Translations under genes and position numbers: made by a program
Shown here: positions 1 to 24,144 of the stretch, piece after piece
How the letters are laid out: every line of letters begins with the position of its first letter
Numbering within the stretch: position 1 is the first letter of the stretch
Source of the DNA: a virus
Taxonomy: Duplodnaviria; Caudoviricetes
Virus record (IMG/VR): IMGVR_UViG_3300037424_003015
Coordinates: 1 to 24,144 of that record
Direction: 5' to 3' (one strand)
Length of the DNA stretch: 24,144 bases
Notes under the pieces: model-generated
The model's database searches: none
The model's input: the letters and a program-made list of their open reading frames with translations, nothing else
Told to the model about the DNA's origin: nothing

Positions 1-774
1 TCAGTATGGCACCGTGACGTAGTCCCACACGGGCTCAGGCAGACCCTCGACGTGGTCCTCCTGCCCGGTGGCTGCCCAGACCTTGATCCGGTCGTTGCAG
101 AACGCCCTGCCCGCGAGCATCCGCCGTTCGTCGCGGGTAAGGCAACGGTGCTCGACGGTGTACGGCGTCTTCATCTGCACGGCGGGGATGTGGGGATAGG
201 TCCGGTCGAAGTCCTGGAAGATCCAGTGACGTCGCCCGTCCTTCTCCGCCGAGAACGCGCCGTGGTGGCGCTCGCAGGTGATGCCCGGCAGGGCACGGAA
301 GAAGTGACCGAGGAAGTAGGTCGCCTGCGCCTCGCGGGCGTGCCAGTTCGTCGCCGCCATCGAGCCCGGTGGGGTCCAGTAGGTGACGGACACGACATCG
401 ACGCCATCGGCGAGGAGCTGGGCAAGCTCGGCCCGAACCGGCTCCCGTTCGGCGTGGTCGATCCAATCGGCATCCGAGGTCAGGATCCAATCAGTCCCGC
501 GCGCAGCCCGTTCGAGGATGAAGGCGCGCTTCGCCACCTGCCCGGCCCACAGCTCGTCGGGGACGATGACCTCGCACTCGAGCCCGCATTCAGCAGCCGT
601 CTCGCGGATGACGGCAGCCTGCTCCGGGGGGCTGGCCGGTGTCCCTCCGGGGTAGCGCCGATAGGCTCCATCCACGGCGACGATCCGGTCGGCCGTGTTG
701 GCGAGCCCGAGCACGCAGTCACGCAACAGGTCGACCGGCTCATCCCACCAGACAAGAGCCGCGGTAACGATCAT
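1..774 (-). CDS. GT-A fold (GT2-like) glycosyltransferase, 257 aa
   Basis: ATG at 774 overlaps the upstream stop (ATGA); 'RIVAVDG' strand and 'DWILTSDADW' DxD motif; the track start at 891 overlaps the previous gene. Confidence 0.8.
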   Translation of the reverse strand: MIVTAALVWWDEPVDLLRDCVLGLANTADRIVAVDGAYRRYPGGTPASPPEQAAVIRETAAECGLECEVIVPDELWAGQVAKRAFILERAARGTDWILTSDADWIDHAEREPVRAELAQLLADGVDVVSVTYWTPPGSMAATNWHAREAQATYFLGHFFRALPGITCERHHGAFSAEKDGRRHWIFQDFDRTYPHIPAVQMKTPYTVEHRCLTRDERRMLAGRAFCNDRIKVWAATGQEDHVEGLPEPVWDYVTVPY

Positions 775-1481
775 GCCGCCACCGCCATCTCGGCCATGAG
801 GACCCGTGCCCGCTCCACGAGATCGGCCGGGTAGACCGTCGCGAGGCGTACCCAGGGGTCCGTTCGCTCGACGACGCCCCAACGCCGCCACAGGCTCGCG
901 TAGTGGGTGATGAACGGCGGCACCCGGAAGCCGACGTACTGGAGCGGGTGTCGGTCATACCACTCCCAACGCGGCGGTCGGGCGAGCCCTCGAATGGTGA
1001 GGTGATCCGTATTCCGCATGATCTCGTCGGGCGCGGGTCGGAAGCCGACACGCTCCATCAGCGAGCGGTGGAACATGTGCGGCCCGGCTCCGACCTGTCC
1101 GACCTTGAGCTCCGCCAGCCGGGTCGGCTCCACCGGGGCGTACATCCCCGAGGTACGCGTCAGGCGCGGGTAGGGGAGGGGCAGGAAGTAGGCCGGGTCG
1201 ACCCAGCTATCCGAGCCGATCGGCACGATCCACTCGGCGCCGTGCTTGCCGGCGTACTCCTGACCATCGTTGAACTTCCGGCCGAGCCATTCGTTCGACT
1301 GCTCGACCACATCGAAGCCAAGGCTCCGTGCGATGTCGAGGTTCTCGTCGTCCGCGATGACGACCTGGTGCGCCTCGACCCCGGACAACGCGAGCGCCTC
1401 GATGACCTGCCGGCGCTGCTCGAGACAGATGGCCGTCAACTCGAACCGACCGAAGGCAGGGGTCACGAACCAGACGCTCAT
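771..1481 (-). CDS. GT-A fold (GT2-like) glycosyltransferase, 236 aa
   Basis: ATG at 1481 (ATGA overlap); 'VWFVTPAFGR' N-terminus, 'LGRKFNDG', 'WIVPIGSDSW' DxD-equivalent. Confidence 0.75.
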   Translation of the reverse strand: MSVWFVTPAFGRFELTAICLEQRRQVIEALALSGVEAHQVVIADDENLDIARSLGFDVVEQSNEWLGRKFNDGQEYAGKHGAEWIVPIGSDSWVDPAYFLPLPYPRLTRTSGMYAPVEPTRLAELKVGQVGAGPHMFHRSLMERVGFRPAPDEIMRNTDHLTIRGLARPPRWEWYDRHPLQYVGFRVPPFITHYASLWRRWGVVERTDPWVRLATVYPADLVERARVLMAEMAVAA

Positions 1482-2146
1482 GCCGCCACCCTCGGGGCGA
1501 GGAGGTCCCAGTCCACCGGGAAGAGCGCCCTGATGGTCGAGGTGATAGCACCGTGCGGTCGGTGGCTCGTCGGGCGACCGTTGTCCTGGTGACTCACGCG
1601 GAGCCATGCCGGGCCGTCGTCGATGAACGTCACCGGGTAGGCTGCCGGGATGCGTTGGTGCTGGTGGGTCAGCGCGTGTTCGCGGAACCCGACCGGCGAG
1701 TAGACCGACGGCCATGCGTTGCGGAGGTGCCGGTTCATCGCCACTCGCCCGTCCCGGACGTGGTAGCCGACCGGGAAGATATACGCCCACGGCACGGAAG
1801 CCGGAAGGACCGCCGCGTACAGCCGGGCGAAGGCATCCATCGAGAACCCGTCGTCGTCGTCGATCCGCGTCGTGAGGACCGGCCCGGACCAATCGATCGC
1901 CGTCTCCGCTTCCGCGGTACTTGTGACGGGGATGACCGGATGCCCTGCCGACCGGAAGGCATCGAGCCGGTCCTCACGGAGGGGATCGTCGGGCGCGACG
2001 AACGCGAGCCACGTCCAGTCCCCGGCCTGCTCTGAAAGGGAGCGGGCGGTGATGCCCCGGAGGAGGGCGATCCGGCGGGCGTTCGCGTCGAGCGGGTAGT
2101 CGGGGCCGCGGTACGAGCGGGTCATGAGGTAGTGGCGGAGGTTCAT
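1478..2146 (-). CDS. Glycosyltransferase, putative rhamnosyl-transferase-like GT-A family, 222 aa
   Basis: 'TARSLSEQ..W.WL', 'VLTTRIDDDDGF' and 'PAWLRVSHQDN' match the pattern of the putative rhamnosyl transferase family; sugar specificity cannot be inferred. Confidence 0.75.
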   Translation of the reverse strand: MNLRHYLMTRSYRGPDYPLDANARRIALLRGITARSLSEQAGDWTWLAFVAPDDPLREDRLDAFRSAGHPVIPVTSTAEAETAIDWSGPVLTTRIDDDDGFSMDAFARLYAAVLPASVPWAYIFPVGYHVRDGRVAMNRHLRNAWPSVYSPVGFREHALTHQHQRIPAAYPVTFIDDGPAWLRVSHQDNGRPTSHRPHGAITSTIRALFPVDWDLLAPRVAA

Positions 2147-2994
2147 CGCGCCGGAACCTCCAGCGCCATCTCCGGGTACGCCTGACCGACCTTCGCCCGG
2201 AGCGCCTGCACCTCGGCGACGAGCGCGATCTTGAGCGTCGCGGGGATAAGCGTCTCGCGGTAGGCCCGGATCGCGGCGGCACGCTGGGCCGGGTCCGGGA
2301 TGCGGCGGGCGATGTGCTCGCAGCGGGCGACGATATCCCGGTTGCGTCGGCGCATCTGCTGGCGAGCCGGGGAGTCCCTGCGACTGTCGGGGTGGGTGCA
2401 GAGAGACCCCTCCCGGCCGAAGCGGTTGTACGTCATGAAGTCCGACACCGCGACCGGCCGGACGTTCCGCATGACCCGGAGCGTGAGCGAGTCCTGGCCC
2501 AGCCTCTCGGCCGGGTTGTGAGCGCCGATCTCCGTGTACCGTGACGTTCGGTAGATGCCGACTTCGTATGCCTTGCGCTGGCCCCGTGCGAAGTCAGCGG
2601 GGACCGGAGTCCCATGACAGCGAAGGTGCTGAGGATCGCCGGGGCAGTAGGCGTCGTTGTGGTAGCGGACCCCGCCCGAGGCCACGTCCTTGCCGTAGGC
2701 CAACAGGCGCTCGATGTGGTCGGGGTCGATCCAGTCATCCGCGGCGACGGGCGCGTACCACTCGTGGGGACTGGCCCAGATCGCCACGTCCTGCGCGAAG
2801 TACGCGCCCCGGTTGACGGGGTAGGAATGGACGATGAGCCGGTCGTCGCGGATACCCGAGAGGGGCGGCTCGTCGCCGTCGCCGATGACGACGCACACGA
2901 GGTCGCGGTACGTCTGGGCGAGGACGCTCTCGACCGCTCGCCGAACGTACTCGCGGGTCGGGGCGTAGTGAGTGACGCTGACGAGGACGGTCAC
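2143..2994 (-). CDS. GT2 family glycosyltransferase, 283 aa
   Basis: 'YVRRAVESVLAQTYRDLVCVVIGDG', 'NRGAYFA', 'VAADDWIDPDHIERL' are GT2 hallmarks. Confidence 0.9.
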   Translation of the reverse strand: MTVLVSVTHYAPTREYVRRAVESVLAQTYRDLVCVVIGDGDEPPLSGIRDDRLIVHSYPVNRGAYFAQDVAIWASPHEWYAPVAADDWIDPDHIERLLAYGKDVASGGVRYHNDAYCPGDPQHLRCHGTPVPADFARGQRKAYEVGIYRTSRYTEIGAHNPAERLGQDSLTLRVMRNVRPVAVSDFMTYNRFGREGSLCTHPDSRRDSPARQQMRRRNRDIVARCEHIARRIPDPAQRAAAIRAYRETLIPATLKIALVAEVQALRAKVGQAYPEMALEVPAR

Positions 2995-3484: not shown

Positions 3485-3858
3485 CAGCTCGCCCCGCTCG
3501 CCCGGGTCGTATCGGCGCTGATCGCGAGGCGGCCCGACAGCGGAGTCCGCACGTCACCCGCCATGTCGTCGATCTGCACATCCCAGTAGAGGGACCGGGC
3601 GATGACGTGGTCGGAGAGGTCTTCGGTGTCCTCGGGGTCGAGGGTGATCGTCGCCGTGCCGAGGGTCGGGTCGTAATCGGTCACGATCCCGGCGGCCGTC
3701 GAGAGGCTGATGATCGCCTGCGCGTCGGTGTCGGTCGGCCGGCGCTTGACCGTGAACGTGATCGTGATTCCGGTCAGGTCGATCGCCAACCCATCGGCAT
3801 CGGTGATGGCAATCTCGAACGCCTGCTTGTCGCCCCGAACCATCGAAAGGAGGCTCAT
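3484..3858 (-). CDS. BppU-N/LtfC-like beta-sandwich virion protein (fibre adaptor candidate), 124 aa
   Basis: 'RGD...IDLTG.T..F.VK...G.ATITL....T......YWDVQ......V.T.L.G' pattern. Confidence 0.7.
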   Translation of the reverse strand: MSLLSMVRGDKQAFEIAITDADGLAIDLTGITITFTVKRRPTDTDAQAIISLSTAAGIVTDYDPTLGTATITLDPEDTEDLSDHVIARSLYWDVQIDDMAGDVRTPLSGRLAISADTTRASGAS

Positions 3859-5150
3859 TCGATCTCCCCGCTGTACGTCTTCGGTGTGATCGTCCCGGCA
3901 TAGGCGTCACCGAGGACGGCTCCCGTGATGTGCCCGGGCGGGAGCGTCGCTCGCAGGTGTTCGATGCGGACCGCCTGACCGTGCGCCCGGCGCCCGAGGA
4001 TCGTGGCGAGCAGCACATCCGGCAGGCCGTGGGCGGGAGCCGGTGGCACGCCGAACGTCGCCACGCCTCCGCCCGTGGCGGCGAACCCGCCGAGGCGCTC
4101 GGTCAGCGCGGCCATCGTCAGGACCCCGCCACCCGACATGAGGGCCCCGAGGGAGCGCGCGCTCTCAACGGACAGCGACAGAGCACCGGATGCCGTCGCC
4201 ACGAGAACCACGCCCCGATCGGTCATCGACCCGAATGCCGCGGTGCCTCCGCCCGTTGCCACGAAGCTGCCCGGATGGTCCTCGCCCGTCGATCCGGTGA
4301 AGACTGCTACACCACCGCCGGTCGCTACCAGTACGCCGAACCTCTCGGATGCCTGGGCCGTCGTGATGACACCGCCGCCCGAGAGGAGCATCGCCCCGAG
4401 GCGCCCCGCCTCCACGGATGCTGCGAGCACGCCGCCGCCAGTCGCAGCCAAGAGCCCGACGCGTTCCGTCGAGGCCGAGGTAGCGGCTACCCCACCTCCG
4501 GTCGCGGAGAATGAGCCGGAGTGTTCCTCGGCCGTTGCCCCGACGGTGTAGTCCCAGGTGATGACCCCGCCGCCAGTCGCCGTCAGGGCGAGGGCGCGAT
4601 CGGTCGTCGCAGCCGTCGCCGCGACGCCTCCACCTACCGCAGAGAACGTGCCCGCATGATCTCCGGTCGCCCCGACGACCGCGGTCCCACCACCCGTCCC
4701 GGTCGTGCCGACATTCCGCTGCGTCGAGGCTGAGGCTACGGTGACGCCGCCGCCAGTGGCAACGAAGCTGCCGGAGTGTTCCTCGGCCGCGGCGGCCACC
4801 GTGACGGTCTGAGTGGCGGAGAGGACGGTGTAGGCACCGCCCGTCGTGGGGGCCCCGACCATGCGGATGGTGTACGACCCAGACGCGGCGCAGGTGACAG
4901 TGATGCTCTGCTGGGCCGCCGAGTTGGAGTTCGTGACCGGGTTGGTGCCGGCCGTGGTCAGGCCGGTGCCCGAGGCACCAATCGTCACGTAGCCGGAGCC
5001 GGGATTGACCTCCCAGCGGAAGTCGTATCGGTTGACCCCGCCCGTGCCGGTGAAGCCCGGCGTCCCCGAGAAGGCGAACGTATCGTTGATCGCCGCCGAA
5101 ACGGGAGCGGCCGGGGCGTCGCGGCTGATGCTGACGAGGGTCTTTGCCAT
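3855..5150 (-). CDS. Gly/Ala/Thr-rich repeat fibre protein with Ig-like N-terminal domain, 431 aa
   Basis: About 120-aa beta-rich N-terminus followed by 12 units of about 20 aa centred on xxGGG; lies in the virion operon. Confidence 0.75.
   Translation of the reverse strand: MAKTLVSISRDAPAAPVSAAINDTFAFSGTPGFTGTGGVNRYDFRWEVNPGSGYVTIGASGTGLTTAGTNPVTNSNSAAQQSITVTCAASGSYTIRMVGAPTTGGAYTVLSATQTVTVAAAAEEHSGSFVATGGGVTVASASTQRNVGTTGTGGGTAVVGATGDHAGTFSAVGGGVAATAATTDRALALTATGGGVITWDYTVGATAEEHSGSFSATGGGVAATSASTERVGLLAATGGGVLAASVEAGRLGAMLLSGGGVITTAQASERFGVLVATGGGVAVFTGSTGEDHPGSFVATGGGTAAFGSMTDRGVVLVATASGALSLSVESARSLGALMSGGGVLTMAALTERLGGFAATGGGVATFGVPPAPAHGLPDVLLATILGRRAHGQAVRIEHLRATLPPGHITGAVLGDAYAGTITPKTYSGEIE
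4050..4784 (-). repeat. Hierarchical coding repeat: 3 super-repeats of 4 units each
   Basis: E(E/D)HxGSFxATGGG begins at 4784, 4529 and 4283 (85 and 82 codons apart); internal GGG motifs 20 aa apart (one unit has ASG). Confidence 0.9.
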
Positions 5151-14072: not shown

Positions 14073-14245
14073 CCGAGTGTCCCCGGTTCACGCGGCACGA
14101 TGGGCCAGTGCCCGTAGACCCACTGACGGAGCCGACGGGTCGGCGTGAGGGTCAGGACGAACTCCAAGGTCGCGGGGCGCCGGAACATCCAGTCACGACC
14201 GCCGGGCCGGTAGTTCATCGCGCGATACCACGATGCGGACCTCAT
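14069..14245 (-). CDS. Small hypothetical protein, 58 aa; not in ORF track
   Basis: MRSASWYRAMNYRPGGRDWMF...PREPGTLG; AGGAGG RBS; ATGA overlaps at both ends. Confidence 0.55.
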   Translation of the reverse strand: MRSASWYRAMNYRPGGRDWMFRRPATLEFVLTLTPTRRLRQWVYGHWPIVPREPGTLG

Positions 14246-14463
14246 GGCTTCCCTCCTAGACGTGCATTGACCGCCTCAGCGGTCGTGAGAGTGGGGGCGT
14301 CGGTCAGCGCGGCCACAACGCGGCGTGCTTCATGGAAGTGCTCGGCCGCCCCGTGGTCGTCGTGGAAGTCGCCATTGGCATCTAGGCGACCGTATCCCGG
14401 CGACCAGTTCTCGCAGATGCGCGCCTCGTGCATCGCTCGCGCCATCCGCTCCACGTCGCTCAC
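14242..14463 (-). CDS. Hypothetical protein, 73 aa
   Basis: GTG at 14463 overlaps upstream TGA; 'VERMARAMHE...EARRVVAAL'. Confidence 0.6.
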   Translation of the reverse strand: MSDVERMARAMHEARICENWSPGYGRLDANGDFHDDHGAAEHFHEARRVVAALTDAPTLTTAEAVNARLGGKP

Positions 14464-14699
14464 CAGCCGGTCCATTGCCAATACGACCGGGCCTTGACGC
14501 GATCGGTGATGAGCACGACGACGTCGCCGTGGCGATCGGCCATCGTTTCGATCACGTCATCGCGGATGCCCGTGGGGTCGTTGGCGAGCTGGCCGAGGGC
14601 CATGACGCAGACACGGCAGACGAGCCGCGGACCGTCCCCTTCGATGAGGTGATCGGGTCGCCCGCAGTGACGGCACTGGCCCGGGATGTCGATCACCAT
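14460..14699 (-). CDS. Small CxxC...CxxC protein, 79 aa
   Basis: ATG at 14699 (TGATG overlap with endolysin stop); 'CRHC...CRVC'. Confidence 0.65.
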   Translation of the reverse strand: MVIDIPGQCRHCGRPDHLIEGDGPRLVCRVCVMALGQLANDPTGIRDDVIETMADRHGDVVVLITDRVKARSYWQWTGW

Positions 14700-15619
14700 C
14701 AGCCTCCCAACAGCACGGCTGCGTTGACCGCCGCGTCCTTCACGGCCCGGGAGCCGTCCCGGAGCCCTGCCGCTACCCCTTCGGCGCGGGCGGCGTTGAC
14801 GAGCGGGGTGCAGTCGATGGCCGGTTTCTGGTTGAGGTAGTCGGTGAGGCCCTTGGCAGTCAGGGGATCGACCACCAGTACCCAGTCCCGGACGAGCATG
14901 TAGGCGGGCTCGGGGCCGTACTGCGTCAGGACCCACTCGCTGTCAGTGGCTGCGGACGTCGTGACGTGGGCGATGGAGCGGGCCACCTGGTCGAGGGTGA
15001 GGCGGGCGATGATCGGGGCGCCGGCGTCGGGGGTTCGGCGCAGCACGCCGTTGCTCGTGCCGGTCGCGCTCTTGGTGGGGGTCCAGTCCTCGCCCTTGAT
15101 GGCGGTGATCACCTCGTCCTCCTCAAAGTAGCGCCGGAAGAGCGCCGTGTGGTCCCGGAATTCGCTGTCCCGATACCAGCTCGTGTGCGTGTGCTGGCGG
15201 TGCGAGAGGTCGCCCTGCGTCCAGCGGCCGTCGACGAACTTGCTCTCGTAGACCTTCCCGGTCGGCTCGTCCCAGCGGAAGACCTTGACCCCGTCCGGGG
15301 AATAGATCAGCTCCCGGATATCCAGGGTGTCGATGGCCCGGTTCGCGCATTCACGCGAGAGCCACACCGACAGCTTCTGAAGCCCCGTGAGGGTTCCGCC
15401 GACCGTCCCGATGTCGATGGCCGACGCGGCGTCGGACAGGCCCGCGACGTCACGGGGGAGCCGGGCCGACGATGCCCCGACGGCCAGATCGTCGGCACCC
15501 AGGTGATAGCTCCAGCCCTTGGCGATGTGCGCGGTGTCGCCCTTGATGCCGAGATTCACCGCGCCCTGAGACACGAGGTACTTGCCGAGGGTGACGAGGG
15601 TCGGGGGAGCGAAGGTCAT
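14699..15619 (-). CDS. Probable endolysin: zinc peptidase (LAS/M15-like) domain plus SH3b-like domain, 306 aa
   Basis: 'GIKGD.AH....SYH', 'ASAIDI', 'ELIY', 'SHRQHTHTS' (HxH); 'LRRTPDAGAPIIARL' SH3b-like; flanked by membrane proteins. Confidence 0.7.
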   Translation of the reverse strand: MTFAPPTLVTLGKYLVSQGAVNLGIKGDTAHIAKGWSYHLGADDLAVGASSARLPRDVAGLSDAASAIDIGTVGGTLTGLQKLSVWLSRECANRAIDTLDIRELIYSPDGVKVFRWDEPTGKVYESKFVDGRWTQGDLSHRQHTHTSWYRDSEFRDHTALFRRYFEEDEVITAIKGEDWTPTKSATGTSNGVLRRTPDAGAPIIARLTLDQVARSIAHVTTSAATDSEWVLTQYGPEPAYMLVRDWVLVVDPLTAKGLTDYLNQKPAIDCTPLVNAARAEGVAAGLRDGSRAVKDAAVNAAVLLGG

Positions 15620-16250: not shown

Positions 16251-16709
16251 TTATAGACGTGCATTCAGGCCGCCCGCATTCGCGGCCGGTACTTCTGACG
16301 GTGTGCAGCCTGCTCGCCGAGGATGGCACTCGGCACACCGCGTGCCGGTCCAGTACGGCTTGGCCGTCACGTCGACCGGATGGCCCTCTGAGCAGATTGG
16401 CAGAACGCGCGGACCGGGCTTGTGCCCCTTCAGGTCCCGATCTCGGGAGTTGTCCTTTGGGGTCCCGAGGAAGAGGTGCGCCGGGTTTACGCAGGGGGGG
16501 TTATCGCAGGTATGGCAGACATAGAGCCCATCGGGGATCTCACGACCATTCGCAAGGCGCCATGCCTGACGATGGGTGTTGCCCTGTCGTCCGGGGGAGA
16601 CGGTGCAACGGCCGTAGCCGTTCCGGTACGTATCGCCAAGCCATGCCCAGCAACCCGAAGGACCGGCAGAACGGTCAACCCTGACCCAGAAGTCGGCAGG
16701 CGCCTGCAC
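16251..16709 (-). CDS. HNH homing endonuclease, 152 aa
   Basis: 'FWVRVDRS...CWAW.G....GYG', 'THRQAW', '[27 protein letters not shown]', 'CSEGH...CAEC'. Confidence 0.92.
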
Positions 16710-16715
16710 CCTCTG

Positions 16716-16744
16716 AGAGTAGCTGCGAGCGGACCCCGTGCCTA
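16716..16744 (-). promoter_or_regulatory. Candidate sigma70-type promoter for a leaderless HNH transcript
   Basis: TAGGCA (16744-16739), 17 bp spacer, TACTCT (16721-16716), then 6 nt to the GTG at 16709. Confidence 0.4.
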
Positions 16745-16775
16745 CTCGGACGATGTTTCTAGGTGAACGGGCGTG

Positions 16776-16991
16776 CTAGCGACCCCTGTCGCGGAGGACG
16801 GTAGGGACAAACGTCCAAATCGATACGCGATCCCCGGCCCGTTGAGCGAAGCACGAGGGGCAAACGATGACTCCCTCAGCACGGGGGTTTTCGACCGTCC
16901 CCATAACCTCGTTCCACAGGTCATTCGGTGCATGCCAGACGGGGTTTGCCCGGCCGCAATCCCGACACGTCGCCTCAGTGAACCCAGCCAT
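16776..16991 (-). CDS. Small CxxC...CxxC protein, 71 aa
   Basis: ATG at 16991 one base after upstream TAG; 'CRDCG..NPVW....DLWNEV...IVCPSCF'. Confidence 0.65.
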   Translation of the reverse strand: MAGFTEATCRDCGRANPVWHAPNDLWNEVMGTVENPRAEGVIVCPSCFAQRAGDRVSIWTFVPTVLRDRGR

Positions 16992-16992
16992 C

Positions 16993-17298
16993 CTAGAGGG
17001 CCGGTCGGCGCTCACAGCGTGGGCAGCGCGATAGGCCCATGCCCTCGCCCCGGATGTCTAGCCAATGTCGCCCGGTCGTCGTATTCGGCCGGACCGTGAG
17101 GCCACAGGCCGTCAGGCTGTTGCCTTCCCTGACGCCACCGATCCGGTGCCAGTAACGCATAGTCGGGGTCCAGCCCATCGGGCCGTTGCCTCGCGTGATC
17201 CAGCGGCCAATGGCCCACGCTTCGGCCGGGGCGCCGACCATCTTCGCCCGTCGTCCACGCCCACACTCGGGGCAGTAGTCGTCAGCCATCCCAGCCAT
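16993..17298 (-). CDS. Cys-containing hypothetical protein, about 101 aa (alternative start 17289)
   Basis: 'CPEC', 'YWH...TACG...RCPRC'; fills the gap between neighbours. Confidence 0.6.
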   Translation of the reverse strand: MAGMADDYCPECGRGRRAKMVGAPAEAWAIGRWITRGNGPMGWTPTMRYWHRIGGVREGNSLTACGLTVRPNTTTGRHWLDIRGEGMGLSRCPRCERRPAL

Positions 17299-17299
17299 C

Positions 17300-17521
17300 C
17301 TACGCCACCCTCCCGAAGATGATGAGCACCGCCTGGACCGACGACGTCACTCCCAGACGTCGGCGGACCTCCACGAGGTTGCAGCGGACCGTCGGCAGGG
17401 CGATGCCGAGCTCGTGGGCCGTTTCCTTGTACGAGCCGGTCAATGCGTAGACGTAGAGGACTTGACGCTGGCGGTCGGTGATTCCCGCGCGGTGCTCGAC
17501 ACCGCGACGGGGGGTGGTCAT
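17300..17521 (-). CDS. Stand-alone LuxR/GerE-type HTH regulator, 73 aa
   Basis: ATG at 17521 (TGATG overlap); 'ITDRQRQVL....TGSYKETAHELGIALPTVRCNL..VRRRLGV.S.VQAV'. Confidence 0.85.
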   Translation of the reverse strand: MTTPRRGVEHRAGITDRQRQVLYVYALTGSYKETAHELGIALPTVRCNLVEVRRRLGVTSSVQAVLIIFGRVA

Positions 17522-18048
17522 CACGCTGGTTCCAGTTTCCCGGGAGGCGGCTCGGGCTTTCGTCGGACCATCCATCGGGAGTCGAAGCGGGCGTATAGGC
17601 CGTAGCACGGCCGACAGTCCTGCGGCATCGTCATTCCGCCTTGGAGGCGCGCGCCGCCGTCCGTGTCCACGAACTCACGCGGCGCCACGAACCCGTCCGC
17701 CATCGTCGTCCAGTAACGCGCCTTGTGGTCCGGGTTCGCGCCGATATGGCGGTCGCGTGACCGCTCCCAAGTCTCCCGCCGGTTGGTGTTGTATTCCGTG
17801 TTTAGTTTGTGGAGTTGCTCGGCCTCGTATTGCCAGCGTCTCCACGTCCGGGCTAAGTGCAGCAGGACCTCGAACAAGTCCAACCGCTCCTCGCCACAGT
17901 CACGGCACCCGACCGTCCTCAAAACTTCATCGAGCATGGTGTGCTCGTGCTGGCATGACAAGTAGTCGCGCGGCTTCCAATCGACTGGCGGGGCCTCAGT
18001 GAACCGCGTCTCGATCGCGATGACGTTGTCAGGCGTCTCCCCGTTCAC
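17521..18048 (-). CDS. Zinc-binding hypothetical protein, 175 aa
   Basis: GTG at 18048 (GTGA overlap); 'CQH....LDE..RTV.CRDCG...DLFEVL..LA', later 'CRPC'. Confidence 0.7.
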   Translation of the reverse strand: MNGETPDNVIAIETRFTEAPPVDWKPRDYLSCQHEHTMLDEVLRTVGCRDCGEERLDLFEVLLHLARTWRRWQYEAEQLHKLNTEYNTNRRETWERSRDRHIGANPDHKARYWTTMADGFVAPREFVDTDGGARLQGGMTMPQDCRPCYGLYARFDSRWMVRRKPEPPPGKLEPA

Positions 18049-18254
18049 TCCACAGCCCTCAGCCACGCCCACACCGGCCGCATCGCCCAGGAGAAGCCGA
18101 TCCCCAACACGAAGGCCAACCCGCCGTGAACGGTGCCCATGAAGACGGCGATACCGGACGCTCCGAGGAAGGCGACGAGGGTCACGATGGCCTGCTCGCC
18201 CTTGGAGAGGCGCTGGTAGCGGCGGTAGCGGGCGTGGATGCGAGGAACGGTCAC
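18045..18254 (-). CDS. Small 2-TM membrane protein, 69 aa
   Basis: GTG at 18254 (GTGA overlap); two hydrophobic segments. Confidence 0.65.
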   Translation of the reverse strand: MTVPRIHARYRRYQRLSKGEQAIVTLVAFLGASGIAVFMGTVHGGLAFVLGIGFSWAMRPVWAWLRAVE

Positions 18255-18475
18255 GACTCGTCCCAATCGATGTCCGTCGCGCGGATGTCATCGGGCGCGT
18301 GGTACACCGCGAGCGCGTCGTCGTCAGTCCAACCAGCGGCGGCGGCCTTGGCCCATTCCTCGACGTGGCGCTCGGCGGCGCGGCGCGTTCGGAAGTAGCA
18401 CGGGTGCTCATCGTCGAAGGGCGAGGGGTCGCGGTCCCGATACGTCACCATCCAGAGCCGGCCGCCGGACCTCAC
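18251..18475 (-). CDS. Hypothetical protein, 74 aa
   Basis: GTG at 18475 (GTGA overlap) with GAGGGG RBS; 'YFRTRRAAERH'. Confidence 0.65.
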   Translation of the reverse strand: MRSGGRLWMVTYRDRDPSPFDDEHPCYFRTRRAAERHVEEWAKAAAAGWTDDDALAVYHAPDDIRATDIDWDES

Positions 18476-18777
18476 GTCGTCCCCTCTCGGGGTTCTCCCG
18501 GTGTCTCGGCCAGAGCGGCGCGAAGGTCGTTCGCCGCCCTCATGCCCCGAAGCGGCAGGACGAATGGCTCTGCCTGAGCCTCCGCAAAGATCACATCGAC
18601 AAGACGCTGCGCCGCCTCTCGGAGTCCGGGGGCGGCTGGGGGTGGGACGGAGCGTTCCGACAAGAGCGCGTCCACGACATCGAGGGCGAGGCGCGTGTCG
18701 CACGGCCAACCCGCCCCATCCGCGACGCACACTCGCGGCTGGCCGCTGGATACGACGTGCTTCTCAGCGAGTCTCAT
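18472..18777 (-). CDS. Modular hypothetical protein carrying repeats B and A, 101 aa
   Basis: Coupled on both sides; contains PPAAPGLR and AALAETPGEP. Confidence 0.7.
   Translation of the reverse strand: MRLAEKHVVSSGQPRVCVADGAGWPCDTRLALDVVDALLSERSVPPPAAPGLREAAQRLVDVIFAEAQAEPFVLPLRGMRAANDLRAALAETPGEPREGTT
18494..18520. repeat. Repeat A copy 1 (27 bp)
   Basis: TCTCCCGGTGTCTCGGCCAGAGCGGCG, identical to 19182-19208. Confidence 0.95.
18620..18644. repeat. Repeat B copy 1 (25 bp)
   Basis: CGGAGTCCGGGGGCGGCTGGGGGTG, identical to 18943-18967. Confidence 0.95.
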
Positions 18778-19163
18778 CGTTCCTTCCCAGGCTCCGGCCC
18801 TCCCTCCAACTTCCCCGGAGGAGGCCCGGCGAGCTTCAGCGCCTGCCGGAGCAGATAACGCGCCTCCATGGCGTACTGATCGCCGCCGGACTGGTCGAGG
18901 ATCACGGCCGCCTCAGCGATGACGGACAGCAACTCGACGGGCCGGAGTCCGGGGGCGGCTGGGGGTGAGGCCGCTTCGTCCTCGCGCTGCAGGTCCTGGC
19001 CGATCAGGAGCAGTCGCTCGTCTGCGCCCCACGTATCCGGTCGCTGGCAACGGCAGTCGATGGTCCGGCTCCCGCAGCCATCGCAGACCATGAGGAGCGC
19101 CCACAGCACCTCGGCCCGGTCGTAGTAGCCGTTCCCGGCGATGATGTTCGCAACAGTGGTCAT
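18774..19163 (-). CDS. Modular hypothetical protein carrying repeat B and PPPGKLE, 129 aa
   Basis: AAGGAG RBS, ATGA overlaps; 'CDGC...DCRC'. Confidence 0.7.
   Translation of the reverse strand: MTTVANIIAGNGYYDRAEVLWALLMVCDGCGSRTIDCRCQRPDTWGADERLLLIGQDLQREDEAASPPAAPGLRPVELLSVIAEAAVILDQSGGDQYAMEARYLLRQALKLAGPPPGKLEGGPEPGKER
18943..18967. repeat. Repeat B copy 2 (25 bp)
   Basis: Identical to 18620-18644. Confidence 0.95.
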
Positions 19164-19420
19164 CGGTTCTCTCCTTGGGGCTCTCCCGGTGTCTCGGCCA
19201 GAGCGGCGGTGTGCTGTTGCCGTCGGTGGCGACCAAGATCGTCGTTGACCCCGCCGTCATCCCAGCCCCGCCACGCTGGATGATCGTTACAGGCGAGGCG
19301 GCGAGGCCGCCGGTCATAGCCTCGAAGGCCGAGGCTGCCGCAATGAGGGCACGTCACAAGACCACTCGGAAGAACGAACGGCATGGCCCCGCAATCGGGG
19401 CAGTACCAGCCGCCGCTCAT
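19160..19420 (-). CDS. Zinc-ribbon protein ending in repeat A, 86 aa
   Basis: 'CPDCG...CPHCGS'; GGAGAG upstream; C-terminal AALAETPGEP. Confidence 0.7.
   Translation of the reverse strand: MSGGWYCPDCGAMPFVLPSGLVTCPHCGSLGLRGYDRRPRRLACNDHPAWRGWDDGGVNDDLGRHRRQQHTAALAETPGEPQGENR
19182..19208. repeat. Repeat A copy 2 (27 bp)
   Basis: Identical to 18494-18520. Confidence 0.95.
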
Positions 19421-19646
19421 TCCTTCTCTCCGAGAGCCTGACGTGCCAGCCCCATCCAGTGATCCACAACCCCCTGTCGCTTGTCAGGGTTGGTCTTCCA
19501 GTAGATGCTGTCCTCCCACCGCTCCGGCCACGAGGATACGCAATCTCGCGGGGTGCCCATGAGAAGTCGGACGGCGAGCCGTGAACGTCGTTCAGGATCG
19601 TTTCGAGCAGTTCCGCCAGCCTGTCTCGGGCTACGGGGTCGGTCAT
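19417..19646 (-). pseudogene. Possibly frameshifted small gene
   Basis: Coupled ATG at 19646 (MTDPVARDRLAELLETIL...) and coupled TGA at 19417 (...HWMGLARQALGEKE) are in different frames; the span is 230 nt. Confidence 0.45.
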
Positions 19647-19972
19647 CGTTCGGCCGGCAGCGTCGTCGTGATGCGGTGCCATGTCAGCTCCCTCGTTCGG
19701 TAGGTCGCGGCGGCGAGGTCGGGGTCCCGGCCCTCGAGGACGGCGAGGTGGCGCTCCTGGACGAGATCGAGGCGGAGCTCGTCCTCCCAGAAGGCGATGC
19801 GGATACCGTGGCCGGGGAGGGGTTCGAGCCTCGGGATAGCCCTCGACGGACGACGCCACGATCCCCGGACGGGCCTGCGGGTCGCTCGGTCCAAGGCGGC
19901 TCGACGTTCCCGCTCCCGGTATTCGGGATGCGTCGCACGCCAAGCTCGCCAGTAGCCGGGGTCACGACGCAC
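19643..19972 (-). CDS. Hypothetical basic protein, 109 aa
   Basis: 'YWRAWRATHPEYRERERR' helix; stop overlaps next ATG. Confidence 0.6.
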   Translation of the reverse strand: MRRDPGYWRAWRATHPEYRERERRAALDRATRRPVRGSWRRPSRAIPRLEPLPGHGIRIAFWEDELRLDLVQERHLAVLEGRDPDLAAATYRTRELTWHRITTTLPAER

Positions 19973-20267
19973 GTCCGACGCGCTCGAGGTAGGCCAGGAG
20001 GAGCGGGCGGGCCTCGCGACCGTGCTCCGTCTTCCAGCGGTGATGAGATCCGCAGAGGGCCACGAGGTTGTCCGGCTCCGTCCGGGACTTCATGCCGGTG
20101 CCGTGAGAAGCGCGAACGTGGTCCGGCTCAAGGCCGCCGGCACAGTCACCCGGTAGGCGACCGAACCCTACGCAGCCGCCGTCCCTCTCGAAGACGTCGA
20201 GCTTCATTCGAGGCGGGATGACCGTGCCTCGGGACTGCTTCATCTGGGTGTACCGGCGGAGGGTCAC
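19962..20267 (-). CDS. HNH endonuclease, 101 aa
   Basis: 'VFERDGGC...DC.G.LEPDHV.....NLVALCGSHHRWKTEH'. Confidence 0.88.
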   Translation of the reverse strand: MTLRRYTQMKQSRGTVIPPRMKLDVFERDGGCVGFGRLPGDCAGGLEPDHVRASHGTGMKSRTEPDNLVALCGSHHRWKTEHGREARPLLLAYLERVGRAS

Positions 20268-20998
20268 AGCCGTCCCTCGCTCTTGGCGTAGAGCTGTTGA
20301 GCGAGCTCGTATTCGACCGAGCCCTTGCGGAACCCCCGCCGCTGCTCTCGCCGGCGTTCCTTCGCCTCGGCCTCGGCCTTCTCGGCGTCGACCTTCGCCC
20401 CGTTGCGGAACTCCTCGAGGTCCGCGATGAGGGCCCCGAGCGGGTCGGTCGGGTTGGCAAGGAAAACCCGCGACGCCCGCTCGGGTCCCGTCTCATCGAA
20501 GACCCGGAGGTAGGCGAGGATGACGTCGCGCTGCCGGACGGTCGGCATCCGCATCTTCACCGACAGCCACGACCGGAGCCAGGGCGGCGTTTCCTCTCCC
20601 TCCCCCGGACCTCCGTCTTCTCCTAGCGTTAGCGTTGGCGTAGACGACGCGCGCGCAGACGTATTGGTACGGTCATGTGACGTTGCGGTTACGGTGATGT
20701 CACGGTTCCTAGACCGGAGCCGAGCCATCCTGTCCCGGACAGTCAGGTCGCCTTCCTGCCACTCGTCCCAGCCGTCGACGTAGACCGTGCCATCGGTGAG
20801 GGTCACGACGTCGGCTCGCTCGAGGAGCCCTGCGACGGTGCGCTTCCCCAGGAGCCGGGTGAGAGCGCCGATGTCCTTGAACCGCCCGCGCGTTGACTGT
20901 CGCGCGGCGGCGCACATGAGCCGGACCATCGCCAGCGGGTCGGGGTGCTGGTCGATGTTCGGGTCCATGCGGAGGTAGGCGCGGGGGAGTCCTGGCAT
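20264..20998 (-). CDS. Probable phage replication initiator (lambda O / replisome-organiser-like architecture), 244 aa
   Basis: ATG at 20998 (TGATG overlap); N-domain ending 'VDGWDEWQ....RDRMARLR', Thr/Ser linker holding DNA repeats, helical C-domain. Confidence 0.65.
   Translation of the reverse strand: MPGLPRAYLRMDPNIDQHPDPLAMVRLMCAAARQSTRGRFKDIGALTRLLGKRTVAGLLERADVVTLTDGTVYVDGWDEWQEGDLTVRDRMARLRSRNRDITVTATSHDRTNTSARASSTPTLTLGEDGGPGEGEETPPWLRSWLSVKMRMPTVRQRDVILAYLRVFDETGPERASRVFLANPTDPLGALIADLEEFRNGAKVDAEKAEAEAKERRREQRRGFRKGSVEYELAQQLYAKSEGRL
20668..20704. repeat. Iteron-like direct repeat pair (candidate origin)
   Basis: TACGGTCATGTGACG (20668-20682) and TACGGTGATGTCACG (20690-20704), 13/15 identical, 22 bp apart. 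Confidence 0.55.
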
Positions 20999-21348
20999 CA
21001 GGCCGCCCGCCTCCGAGCCCGGTACTCGCGCATGTAGGCGGCGATCCGCTCCCGGTTCGCAGCTCGCCAGCGGTTCGTCGCGGCCAGCCGATCCTCGCGC
21101 TCGCAGCGGTACTTGACCCGCCGGGCTTCCTTGACGCCCTCGGCCCATGCCTCGTCTCCGCGCTTCCCCCGCTGCCAGGCCGTCTGGTAGGCCCGGAGAC
21201 ACGCCTTGCAGCGAGCCATGCCATGCGAGGGTGTCCAGTGGTCCAGGTCGAGCGGCAGCCATTCTCCGCACGTCCGACACCGCGCCTCGAAGATCGGGGC
21301 TCGATAGCGGATGTCCGTGTGCCGCCGGTTCGCGTACATCGTCGTCAC
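20998..21348 (-). CDS. Zinc-finger plus basic helix protein, 116 aa
   Basis: 'RCRTCGEWLPL...CKAC' then 'WRAANRERIAAYMREYR'; resembles the N-terminal part of phage HNH/endoVII proteins but has no nuclease motif. Confidence 0.7.
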   Translation of the reverse strand: MTTMYANRRHTDIRYRAPIFEARCRTCGEWLPLDLDHWTPSHGMARCKACLRAYQTAWQRGKRGDEAWAEGVKEARRVKYRCEREDRLAATNRWRAANRERIAAYMREYRARRRAA

Positions 21349-21551
21349 AGCGAGAGGGCGATCTGCGCGGGCTCGACCACGCGATACCGGGCCGGCCTAC
21401 CCGACGCCTCGATGACGTGACCCGCTGCCCGGAGGTCGCTGATCCGCGCCCGGGGGTTCGACACGAAGGGGTACAGGCCGTAGGTCAGGTCGAGCATGGT
21501 GCAGTCGGGGTGTGAGCGGATGTAGTCGAGGACCCGTTCGACTTGGGTCAT
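21345..21551 (-). CDS. Small winged-helix DNA-binding protein, 68 aa
   Basis: 'TQVERVLDYI...ARISDLRAAGHVIE...ARYRV'. Confidence 0.75.
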   Translation of the reverse strand: MTQVERVLDYIRSHPDCTMLDLTYGLYPFVSNPRARISDLRAAGHVIEASGRPARYRVVEPAQIALSL

Positions 21552-22261
21552 GGCTGCACCCGAACCTTGCGTAGCCTGATGAGACTTACGAGTGAATCGC
21601 TCACGCCATATCGCTTGGCTACGTCCACGCCCTTTTCCCCAGCCGCTAGCCGGGCTCGAATCTCGGCGGTCTGCACGTCAGTGAGCTTTGAATTACTGCT
21701 CGCTTCCCCATATCGAGGAGTGCGCTTCCGACCTCGCCAAAAGTCGCCGATCTTCTTGCCTCGTTTGGCCGCTATCTCTGGATCAGACGCGGCCTTTTCT
21801 GCGTACCGCGCGGCGAGGAAGCGGCCCTTTTCGGCCCGCTCCTCGGGTGACCGACTCGCCCACCACTCGCGACTCCTCAGGGCATTCAGTTGGCGGGTAA
21901 GGTCGTTCGGCGTCGCCCGCGGTCGCCGCACGCCGTTTGGTCCCGTCCGCTTCACCTTGGCGAGGGTCGCCGCCTCCGAGTAGCGCACCATGAGATCGGG
22001 CGTTTGGGCTATCCGGCGATGGTTCGACTCTGTGATCCGACGAGAGACGGGACGAGCCCACAGGGCAGTCGTGACGAACAACCGAAAGCGGTCCCGATAC
22101 TCGGACGCCCGCAGGCCATGCATGGCCCAAACGTGGGTTTGCAGGTTGAGATAGTCGCGTCCGCAGAGATGACAGACGAGGCGATCTCCGACCATCAGAA
22201 AGGCCCCGAACTCGCCAAATGGCGGGCGGTCGTAGTCATAAGGCGGATGCAGCCAAGTCAC
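21548..22261 (-). CDS. MucR/Ros-like zinc finger fused to a C-terminal HTH, 237 aa
   Basis: 'LVCHLCGRDYLNLQTHV..MHGL...EYRDRFRL'; C-terminal 'GE....SKLT..Q..EIR..L..GEKGVDVAKRYGVS..LVSLI'. Confidence 0.75.
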   Translation of the reverse strand: MTWLHPPYDYDRPPFGEFGAFLMVGDRLVCHLCGRDYLNLQTHVWAMHGLRASEYRDRFRLFVTTALWARPVSRRITESNHRRIAQTPDLMVRYSEAATLAKVKRTGPNGVRRPRATPNDLTRQLNALRSREWWASRSPEERAEKGRFLAARYAEKAASDPEIAAKRGKKIGDFWRGRKRTPRYGEASSNSKLTDVQTAEIRARLAAGEKGVDVAKRYGVSDSLVSLIRLRKVRVQP

Positions 22262-23238
22262 CGTGGCACCGCCGCATCCAGCTCGGCCTCTGTCGCCTCA
22301 TCGAACATCGGGATCGACGGAGCCGGGGGTACTGCGGCCGGCTCCTCTGACGGGACTCCCGCCGCGTCGGGTGAAGGGCCAGCCCCGTGTGTCTCGGCTG
22401 GCAATGGCAGGGACCATCCGGCGGTCCTGATCCGCTTCAGGTGGATGCGCGGGAACGGCTTGGAGAAGTCGCCGTTGCGGAACGGCACGGAGAACTCGTC
22501 TCCCTCGATCGTGCAGACGAGGCCGTTGAGATCCGCCCCGGCCGCGTCGAGCATGTCCACTGCGAGCGGATCGCGGACCAAGACCTGGGGGATGCCCGGG
22601 CCGTCGACCGGCTTGAACGCGACGATGAAGTAGCCGCCGTCCGGTCCCTGCCGGAGATTGCCGTCGGATTGGCCGGTCTTGCGGACGACGATCTCGCCCG
22701 TCCCGGACCAAGGGCCGACATAGACCGGCTCGGTCGATTGTGGCTTGGGCGTTTCACGCCTAGCCGGTTGGCCGGCCCCCTGTCCGGTGGACTGTCCGGC
22801 CTCGGTGCTCCCGAGCTCAGAGTCCTCACCTGTGGACAGAAGGAAGCCGGTCAGGAGCGCGTACTTCATGGCCGAGGTCGACGCCTTGCCGGAATACTTG
22901 TCCCCGCCGTCGGCGCCGGCCCCGAAGGATTGGATCTCGATCGTCTCCCCGGACTCGCCATCGGTGAGCCGCCATGTCGTGACGAGGTCGACGGTCGTCA
23001 TCGACCCGCCCGACTTCGTTGGACGGTCAGCCTGCCCCGTCACCTGGACGCCGACGGGCATCATCGTGATGACCTTCTCGGCGAGGGCCTTGCGGATGTA
23101 GTCGGCCGCATCGCCGACCTGTACGAACTTGTACCCGCCCATCTCGCGAGGCGCGGTCCCGTTCTTCGGGATGCGATCGGCCTCGTACATGATCTGCGCG
23201 AGCTTCCGGTGCAGGCTGCGCGTCTCGGTCGTCGTCAT
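22258..23238 (-). CDS. erf: ERF-family single-strand annealing recombinase with C-terminal extension, 326 aa
   Basis: 'KL..IM.....IPKNG.....YKF', 'D.ESGE.IE....G.G.D.GDK..GKA.T.A.KYAL...FLL.TGED'. Confidence 0.88.
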   Translation of the reverse strand: MTTTETRSLHRKLAQIMYEADRIPKNGTAPREMGGYKFVQVGDAADYIRKALAEKVITMMPVGVQVTGQADRPTKSGGSMTTVDLVTTWRLTDGESGETIEIQSFGAGADGGDKYSGKASTSAMKYALLTGFLLSTGEDSELGSTEAGQSTGQGAGQPARRETPKPQSTEPVYVGPWSGTGEIVVRKTGQSDGNLRQGPDGGYFIVAFKPVDGPGIPQVLVRDPLAVDMLDAAGADLNGLVCTIEGDEFSVPFRNGDFSKPFPRIHLKRIRTAGWSLPLPAETHGAGPSPDAAGVPSEEPAAVPPAPSIPMFDEATEAELDAAVPR

Positions 23239-23813
23239 GCTTCCCCCGTATGTCGTGCGGCGATCTCGTCGTCGCGGTACTGCTCGAAGCGCCGGTCCTC
23301 TTCGATGGCGGCGGCGTCCTGTTCGTCGTACATGGGTTGCATGGGGTCGGGGATGCCGTGATCAGGGCAACCGGGATCGCCGCACTGCCATCCGACGGGC
23401 GCGTTCGGATCGGTGATGCCATGCAGCGGCGCGGGTCTGTCAGGGGTGACGGCTGCTGACACGTCCCTTAGCCGCAGGCCAGCACTTGCGTCCCCCGAAG
23501 GCTTCGGCCCGCCCTTTCGGGAGGTGGTTGAGCCCAAGAGGGAACCGTCATCGTGATTATCGGCCAGCGCGTACTCGTCCGCCATGTCGAGGATGAGCCG
23601 GAAGTCATGCTCGGTCGGCGCGTAGCCGTGTCGGTCGAGATGCCAGCGGCGGAACGCGAGGATCAGCCCATTCGTCGCGTCAACGACGGCCTCGATTGCC
23701 TCCAGAATGAGGCCGGGGCAGGGCCGATCAAGCGGTCGTCCGTCCGGTCCCGCGATGACATACTCGTGCGGCTCGTGCGGCTCATCGAACCCACACTCAG
23801 CCATCCGGACCAT
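23235..23813 (-). CDS. Hypothetical protein, about 192 aa (alternative start 23804)
   Basis: ATG just after upstream TGA; 'C....PHEPH...CPG' and 'CGDPGCPDH'; stop overlaps the erf start. Confidence 0.6.
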   Translation of the reverse strand: MVRMAECGFDEPHEPHEYVIAGPDGRPLDRPCPGLILEAIEAVVDATNGLILAFRRWHLDRHGYAPTEHDFRLILDMADEYALADNHDDGSLLGSTTSRKGGPKPSGDASAGLRLRDVSAAVTPDRPAPLHGITDPNAPVGWQCGDPGCPDHGIPDPMQPMYDEQDAAAIEEDRRFEQYRDDEIAARHTGEA

Positions 23814-23814
23814 C

Positions 23815-24144
23815 TCAGAACACCGTCTGCCGGGAGCGAAGCCCGGTCCCGTAACAGGCTCGGCAGGGGCATCCATGGCCCCACTTGTCGTGAGGACCGG
23901 GGCAGGCGAGCGGGTCGTCGCAGTCGTCCTGCGTCCCCTCGCCGGCGCACCACGTGCAGTCGTCCTCATCCTCATCGCCAAACTCGATCCCGACCTCCGG
24001 CGGCTGCTCCTCCTCCCGTTCCCGGACGACCCGCTCCCAATCCGCCAGCTCATACGAGAGGTCCGCGGCGTCCTCGCCGTTCGCGTACCGCAAGCTCTTG
24101 CGGATGGACTCCACGACGTGGCGGGCTTCCTCGAGGGTGGCGGT
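23815..24144 (-). CDS. 5'-truncated protein with DnaJ-like CxxCxGxG zinc finger
   Basis: Frame open to the window edge; 'CTWCAGEG' and 'CRACYGTG'. Confidence 0.65.
   Translation of the reverse strand, partial: TATLEEARHVVESIRKSLRYANGEDAADLSYELADWERVVREREEEQPPEVGIEFGDEDEDDCTWCAGEGTQDDCDDPLACPGPHDKWGHGCPCRACYGTGLRSRQTVF

Follow-up and report, generated by a model that had tools for sequence, protein, structure and literature searches.

Whether the mosaic joints of phage genomes fall at pre-existing short linkers, or arise by illegitimate recombination followed by selection, is an old open question. The modular theory (Botstein 1980; summarised in PMC2839356 and also in PMC3029335) invoked linker sequences, which in their classical form flank genes or gene blocks. 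In T4-type phages, PeSL cassettes are repeats in a variable region of small genes, where ORFans are inserted, lost and replaced by homologous recombination; these intergenic elements, each a promoter plus a stem-loop, mobilise entire genes and give rise to mini-circles (Arbiol et al. 2010, PMC2839356). Within a single gene, the T-even adhesin gp38 has four hypervariable segments and five conserved glycine-rich motifs proposed as its core (PMC3157838). Ea22 of lambdoid phages represents mosaic early accessory proteins (PMC10834534), and undetected domain mosaicism is expected in accessory proteins (PMC10684548).

The linkers described here, six sequences designated A to F, are like those of the modular theory in being short, common to dissimilar phages and apparently placed to steer exchange to viable positions. 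Between our phage and one relative, G001, they match over 24-38 nt at 91-100% identity although the terminases are 23% identical, and mosaic boundaries lie at them (51 of 67 internal ends of common protein blocks and 19 of 37 ends at the DNA level). In contrast to classical linkers, B, E and F lie within reading frames, there are six types, five of them in fixed order, and the units between them are sub-gene modules of 13-134 aa. The mechanism is thus familiar from the modular theory and the ordered intragenic set makes this an unusually explicit case; the literature searched, which covered few subscription papers, held no description of ordered intragenic linkers in accessory genes. PeSLs similarly lie as repeats among variable small genes, but all linker copies here are coding, carry neither promoter nor significant fold and would yield hybrid proteins. 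A scan of positions 16500-24144, weak at 68% GC, found 0 promoter-like sites and one terminator-like site, on the other strand; identity with PeSLs was rejected on coding position, promoter and a fold no better than that of shuffled sequences. The ordered motifs with variable segments between them are reminiscent of gp38. However, gp38 is a single structural gene with a fixed architecture, whereas each genome here has several genes that draw on subsets of these linkers, with unrelated modules and fixity at the DNA level; a gp38-type adhesin was rejected because linker proteins matched no adhesin or tail family and their motifs, rich in Pro and Ala, are modelled as coil. As in Ea22, accessory proteins are put together from common blocks and unrelated terminal domains. 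The difference is the DNA linkers, none of which are named for Ea22 in the available sections of PMC10834534, and the family Ead_Ea22 (IPR025153) was rejected, five of five candidates resembling Ea22 by eye having 0 Pfam families at E <= 10.

The stretch of DNA analysed, hereafter the window, is a 24,144-nt virus record (Duplodnaviria; Caudoviricetes) of provirus class, 59% complete. Along its minus strand an ERF gene is followed by replication genes and HNH genes, a cluster of small genes at 17.3-19.7 kb whose stops overlap starts, and lysis and head genes. The closest cultured-phage relatives of the capsid, in Rhodococcus, Gordonia and Mycobacterium phages, are 31-35% identical and too far for a host call; a host among the Chloroflexota is conceivable. 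The two longest exact direct repeats of the window, A (27 nt, at 18494 and 19182, 688 apart) and B (25 nt, at 18620 and 18943, 323 apart), lie in the cluster. The third longest is 20 nt, and A and B are confirmed to exceed chance (no repeat above 20 nt arose in any of 200 Markov simulations, half of them of order 2 and half of order 5). As the preliminary description had it, A encodes AALAETPGE in one minus-strand frame where ORFs 19160-19420 and 18472-18777 end, and B encodes PPAAPGLR, again on the minus strand and in one frame, inside ORFs 18774-19163 and 18472-18777. Its statement that the flanks are unrelated agrees with four of five part-against-part comparisons, which were not significant against shuffles (p 0.059-0.89); p was 0.004 in the fifth, gene 1 before A against gene 3 between B and A, where the signal apparently stems from a single common 5-residue stretch spotted by eye. 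The recombination products it foresaw were reproduced by computation: B×B gives an in-frame hybrid of 122 aa, and A×A removes two genes and leaves one of 86 aa, with a GTGA overlap between its stop and the start that comes next. It had overlooked two linkers, C at 19619-19648 and D at 17493-17526, and the order in the window is C, A, B, B, A, D.

All features of the cluster named below lie on the minus strand. Linker C (19619..19648) is a gene-start linker encoding MTDPVARDR and the first in the ordered set; it is identical at 30 of 30 nt in G001, L031 and L019, and 16 copies are tabulated. It heads a 110-aa ORF (19314..19646) that, in three-frame translation, overlaps a 47-aa ORF (19417-19560) in another frame. 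The C-headed ORF seems to switch frame near 19560, and the end of the 47-aa ORF overlaps the start of gene 1, a pattern typical of cluster genes; the two are possibly a single frameshifted gene. A contig of run X1 spans 19179-19646 with 0 differences, so the frame change is not obviously an assembly error. Gene 1 (86 aa, 19160..19420) consists of a Cys-rich N-module and then A (19182..19208), here a gene-end AALAETPGE with a Shine-Dalgarno-like GGAG(A) word; against Pfam it gave zinc-ribbon matches below threshold only. Its 71-aa module, 92% identical, also heads protein P0019 and is followed there by other modules, B and A. Gene 2 (129 aa, 18774..19163) is composed of module alpha-1, B (PPAAPGLR, 18943..18967) and module beta-1, without a terminal A. 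Alpha-1 stands alone in P0026, beta-1 is preceded by three different N-parts in P0024, P0025 and P0027, and the DNA match of gene 2 to L039 (18971-18803) begins at B. Gene 3 (101 aa, 18472..18777) comprises alpha-2, B (18620..18644), beta-2 and A (18494..18520). Its B has the full form VPPPAAPGLRE (18613-18650), identical to a G001 copy at 38 of 38 nt, and the stop behind its A overlaps the next start (GTGA). Alpha-2 with B is joined to two different beta modules in P0001 and P0002, and beta-2 is present in eight proteins in other contexts (P0003-P0010); the modules of the window thus recur with different partners, cut at B. Gene 4 (74 aa, 18251..18475), which has 0 Pfam or PADLOC families, starts inside the stop of gene 3. 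Linker D (17493..17526), last in the cluster, is the gene-start MTTPRRGVE of a LuxR-type HTH gene (17300-17521; GerE, 28.2 bits, exceeding the cut-off); it is identical at 33 of 34 nt in G001, where a different gene comes after it.

Words common to at least four sequence groups, together with their translations, yielded the further linkers C, E (LLAAGVLPP), F (EAASGTPEPP) and D. A, C and D are found at gene ends or starts and B, E and F within genes. A, B and C are present in 10 sequence groups besides the window, or 11 in all, a count that includes G003. When A and B were searched in viral contigs and metagenomes, as the preliminary description had advised, their flanks proved to vary among relatives rather than to be fixed. 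The full exact 27-nt A had 0 matches in viral contigs; its 19-nt core occurs in three of them, with two or three exact copies apiece, and at 36 metagenome loci, of which 16 were retained for companion linkers or gene-end copies (L030 being doubtful) and 20 discarded as lone matches within unrelated genes. A second match of a degenerate B scan (L004/G002), without a linker, and a C-like match standing alone (L059) were also discarded. G001 holds 12 copies of A, B, C and D, 11 of them within a single 3-kb cluster and all on the coding strand. A solitary B-bearing gene in this relative (L062 1106-1498) lies 4.5 kb away from the main cluster, right behind the gene for the annealing protein. Across 17.5-19.7 kb the window and G001 share linker matches only, without a common module; elsewhere their portals are 48% identical, their proteases 46% and their capsids 45%. 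A scan anchored on the lysin returned four linker-bearing contigs already known and L067, which has no linker in the just 1.9 kb upstream that it covers; the single-protein version found 0. The C pattern had 0 matches in prokaryote genomes, where two lone matches of the B pattern were taken as chance, and the cluster DNA had 0 matches in 50,697 cultured-phage records.

Searched with a profile, 1.84 billion representatives yielded 60 proteins at E <= 0.001. The set comprised 93 proteins after near-duplicate removal, from which 12 (another or no linker dialect, one ASCH gene) were excluded, and in the remaining 81 the order C-E-F-B-A is kept by 135 of 145 adjacent linker pairs. Altogether we favor, at a probability of roughly 0.78, a reading in which the linkers are a fixed-order coding set (C-E-F-B-A plus D) and act as crossover points at which modules would be swapped in frame by short-homology recombination. 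The observed part of this reading, as read from the sequences compared, is the linkers, their order, their fixity at the DNA level and the occurrence of the same modules in differing combinations cut at linkers. The proposal of the preliminary description that the repeats are standard linkers is borne out, with modules recombined at B and A as judged by partner changes and variable flanks. A crossover between like linkers would keep the frame, and one at A would also retain the stop, the ribosome-binding site and the next start; since frame and expression signals would be kept, the genes produced would be viable. An interior module would be replaced through a pair of crossovers, and a single one inside a genome would lead to gene fusion or deletion. 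Under repeated exchange the linkers would stay homogeneous, because a drifted copy would leave the exchange pool. Multi-unit fusions (C-E-E-A-B-B-A, 428 aa), in which A lacks its stop, are found at L049 564-1850 (minus strand) and in P0043, which is what unequal crossover or read-through fusion would give.

A different account would make the cluster one amplified family of small genes, diverged paralogues whose motifs are held by peptide selection, as a hinge or for binding, while the interiors drifted. The fixed linker order suits such a single ancestral scaffold, helix-like flanks recur (RLAALL, ADRLL, LREA, RAAL), certain C-to-E stretches align across groups at 70-73%, and structure models of low confidence (pLDDT 59 and 51) place B in coil, with a Cys/His unit or helix on one side and a helical hairpin on the other. 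The codons, by contrast, tell against peptide selection. In 84 linker copies compared with the majority, 648 codons were identical, 22 differed synonymously and 110 non-synonymously, counts to be read knowing that the copies were chosen by DNA seeds, that edge codons inflate the non-synonymous number and that one B row is F in a different frame; over the 46 codons of module beta-1 there were 13 synonymous against 3 non-synonymous changes. A peptide-first search without a DNA seed (131,156 nt) found a single codon string for 14 of 15 PAAPG, 19 of 21 AETPG and 11 of 12 TDPVAR, whereas LAAGV was codon-identical in merely six of nine. The linker codons CCA, GGA, ACA and GCT have 6-10% usage in the long genes of the window. 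Because the codons are fixed, rare ones included, whereas the common module drifts synonymously, we conclude from this codon comparison that it is the DNA rather than the peptide that is conserved in the linkers, synonymous positions being fixed even though residues change. Some of this constraint may lie in expression signals: a stop follows within 15 codons in 24 of 28 A copies, and an ATGA or GTGA overlap with the next start in 21 of 28 suggests translational coupling. The fixity of A may thus be due in part to its Shine-Dalgarno word, which does not explain the fixity of B. A hairpin masking the ribosome-binding site of A was rejected, shuffles being equally good.

The contents of the slots argue in the same direction. 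Modules between B and A number 59 (13-134 aa, median 41) and fall into 39 families, with 31 related pairs out of 1,711, and the case that the preliminary description had named as fatal to its proposal, diverged whole-gene duplicates, fails on these figures. Near-identical modules, moreover, switch partners at linkers, and beta-2 occurs in proteins without these linkers. Paralogy as the only cause is therefore largely refuted, and we consider it improbable; it is partly true for the frame, not for the contents. The C-to-E alignments and the B-to-A module families indicate that plain descent accounts for part of the pattern, and the recurrent helix-like flanks together with the low-confidence models suggest descent from one scaffold gene. 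On this basis the set may go back to a single small ancestral gene; replacement of its interiors would have left Pro-rich spacers that separate small modules of helical or Cys/His type. A second linker dialect, with GLDVERLARAL and EYAAL-type motifs, is found in P0003-P0010, P0083 and P0085 and bears the beta-2 module of the window, which suggests a flow of modules between linker systems; a window gene at 14242-14481 has a motif similar to this dialect.

Passive scarring has similarly little chance of being the whole explanation. Here illegitimate recombination would bring in the modules, and the linkers would be footprints of recent duplication or gene conversion that are rarely reused. The position of breakpoints bears on this directly. 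Among the 81 proteins, 51 common blocks have 102 ends, 35 at protein termini and 67 internal; 51 of the 67 fall at a linker against 28.3 expected (0 of 50,000 simulations), and 42 of 67 do so in both proteins against <=13.6 expected (again 0 of 50,000). In an earlier analysis of 49 proteins, 34 of 49 ends lay at linkers against 20.3 expected, and the DNA-level test gave 19 of 37 against 11.5 (p 0.007). These p-values overstate the case, since blocks are non-independent and the proteins were gathered by linker-bearing queries. As scarring would have it, a quarter to half of block ends are off-linker (16 of 67 for protein, 18 of 37 for DNA), so other routes act too; mosaicism also occurs elsewhere in the genome, for example a 97% identical glycosyltransferase beside a 23% identical terminase, and boundary sequences are absent from most mosaic joints according to PMC3029335. 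What this account does not accommodate is that 11 sequence groups retain these linkers amid many differing flanks, and that several modules independently change partners at one linker.

An in-frame B×B hybrid of the kind foreseen by the preliminary description is present in the database, from a relative: P0027 (266 aa) is an exact composite of residues 1-207 from one gene of L039 and the final 68 residues from the gene after it, the parts overlapping in the nine residues of B, which there is a 30-nt repeat with copies 384 nt apart. Its sole source is one 2,330-nt contig, and it would be either a real deletion or an assembly collapse over the 30-nt repeat. For the window itself, no joint of 323 or 688 nt was among those listed in contigs of runs X1 and X2, a type of data too coarse for junctions so rare and short; the runs listed as holding it included none of RNA. 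Assembly could in principle have produced the swaps at large, by joining different phages at common repeats: in run X1, which may be the source of the window, contig breaks fall at A, B and C, and other contigs have B and A joined with different letters between them, although such joints of differing B-A content are often from other organisms. Yet a single 585-nt X1 contig bridges alpha-1, B and beta-1 of gene 2 with 0 differences, the swapped partners are 84-93% and not 100% identical to the window modules and so come from other phages, the repeats are much shorter than a read, and false joining would still require genuine common linkers; we regard it as very unlikely. An integron-like or other site-specific system with a dedicated recombinase recognising the linkers would suit their near-invariant DNA, rare codons included, and is hardly credible given that the six linker sequences are mutually unrelated, that none of eight linker stretches folded better than shuffles (z -1.33 to +0.86) and that 0 recombinase families were found in the 24 window ORFs scanned of this 59% complete record.

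Under the favored reading of in-frame exchange at linkers, the catalyst may well be a phage single-strand annealing protein, ERF in this case, acting in co-infection or when a prophage is encountered, a proposal by analogy to which we give slightly better than even odds. It rests on size, linkers of 25-38 nt matching the minimum pairing segment of 23-27 bp of Red-beta (PMC3945230); Erf of phage D3 is as efficient as Red-beta in the same source, where it was assayed on 800-bp repeats, not 25 bp. The window does carry nearby the ERF-family gene that the preliminary description had named, a candidate catalyst (22258..23238, minus strand; PF04404, 38.2 bits against a cut-off of 25; phrog_155, E 5e-17). 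G001, which has the same linkers, carries a phrog_19042 N-terminal domain, of function not known, on the same C-terminal half; an annealing role for this type of protein is a weak lead. Neither family was detected in the incomplete record of G003, and ERF need not be the sole catalyst. The annealing-protein gene is itself mosaic: window 22258-23238 and L062 1495-2565 have the C-terminal half in common, at 48% aa identity and with 134 nt at 97%.

From their position and size, the products are possibly early accessory proteins with host or competitor proteins as binding partners, which we put at somewhat less than an even chance. The host-interaction or anti-defence role put forward in the preliminary description drew no support from family searches: no named family in Pfam, PHROGs or PADLOC covers a module, the matches being sub-threshold zinc-ribbon-type families and PHROGs of unknown function; gene 2 had no match in the ESM Atlas at 0.9, and a viral fold search with the models gave 0 matches at E 0.001. 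Whole known domains do adjoin linkers, ASCH ahead of A and DUF4326 and LuxR-type HTH behind D-type starts. One could go further and speculate that five ordered, frame-locked linkers, selected for exchangeability, form a recombinase-free combinatorial library in which a whole group of phages puts together new host- or defence-binding accessory proteins slot by slot from a common pool of micro-domains, at a high rate within populations; we hold this to be rather doubtful. Because its linkers are named and ordered, swapped forms occur naturally and the predicted deletions are exact (323 and 688 bp), the case makes the question of linkers versus illegitimate recombination directly testable. If inheritance works in units of ~40-residue modules, this would explain the absence of full-length homologues for such small phage genes, and modules should be catalogued and screened one by one.

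Other parts of the window deserve mention. A run of glycosyltransferase-like genes lies past the head-tail genes (1-2994, minus strand), with Glycos_transf_2 and Rhamno_transf exceeding the cut-off; one of these glycosyltransferases is 97% identical in G001, against ~45% for head genes. Amid the head-tail genes, a 431-aa repetitive protein rich in Gly, Ala and Thr is encoded at 3855-5150 (minus strand), and the 20-nt repeat at 4515 and 4770 lies inside its gene. The lysin-like gene at 14699-15619 has a C-terminal part common to five of five aligned relatives and an N-terminal domain of two kinds; its final 50 nt are identical in G001. A 60-nt patch at 16720-16779 is 95-98% identical in L014, L031 and L035 and is possibly another boundary linker; in contigs of runs X1 and X2 it is joined to ~17290 with differing content between.
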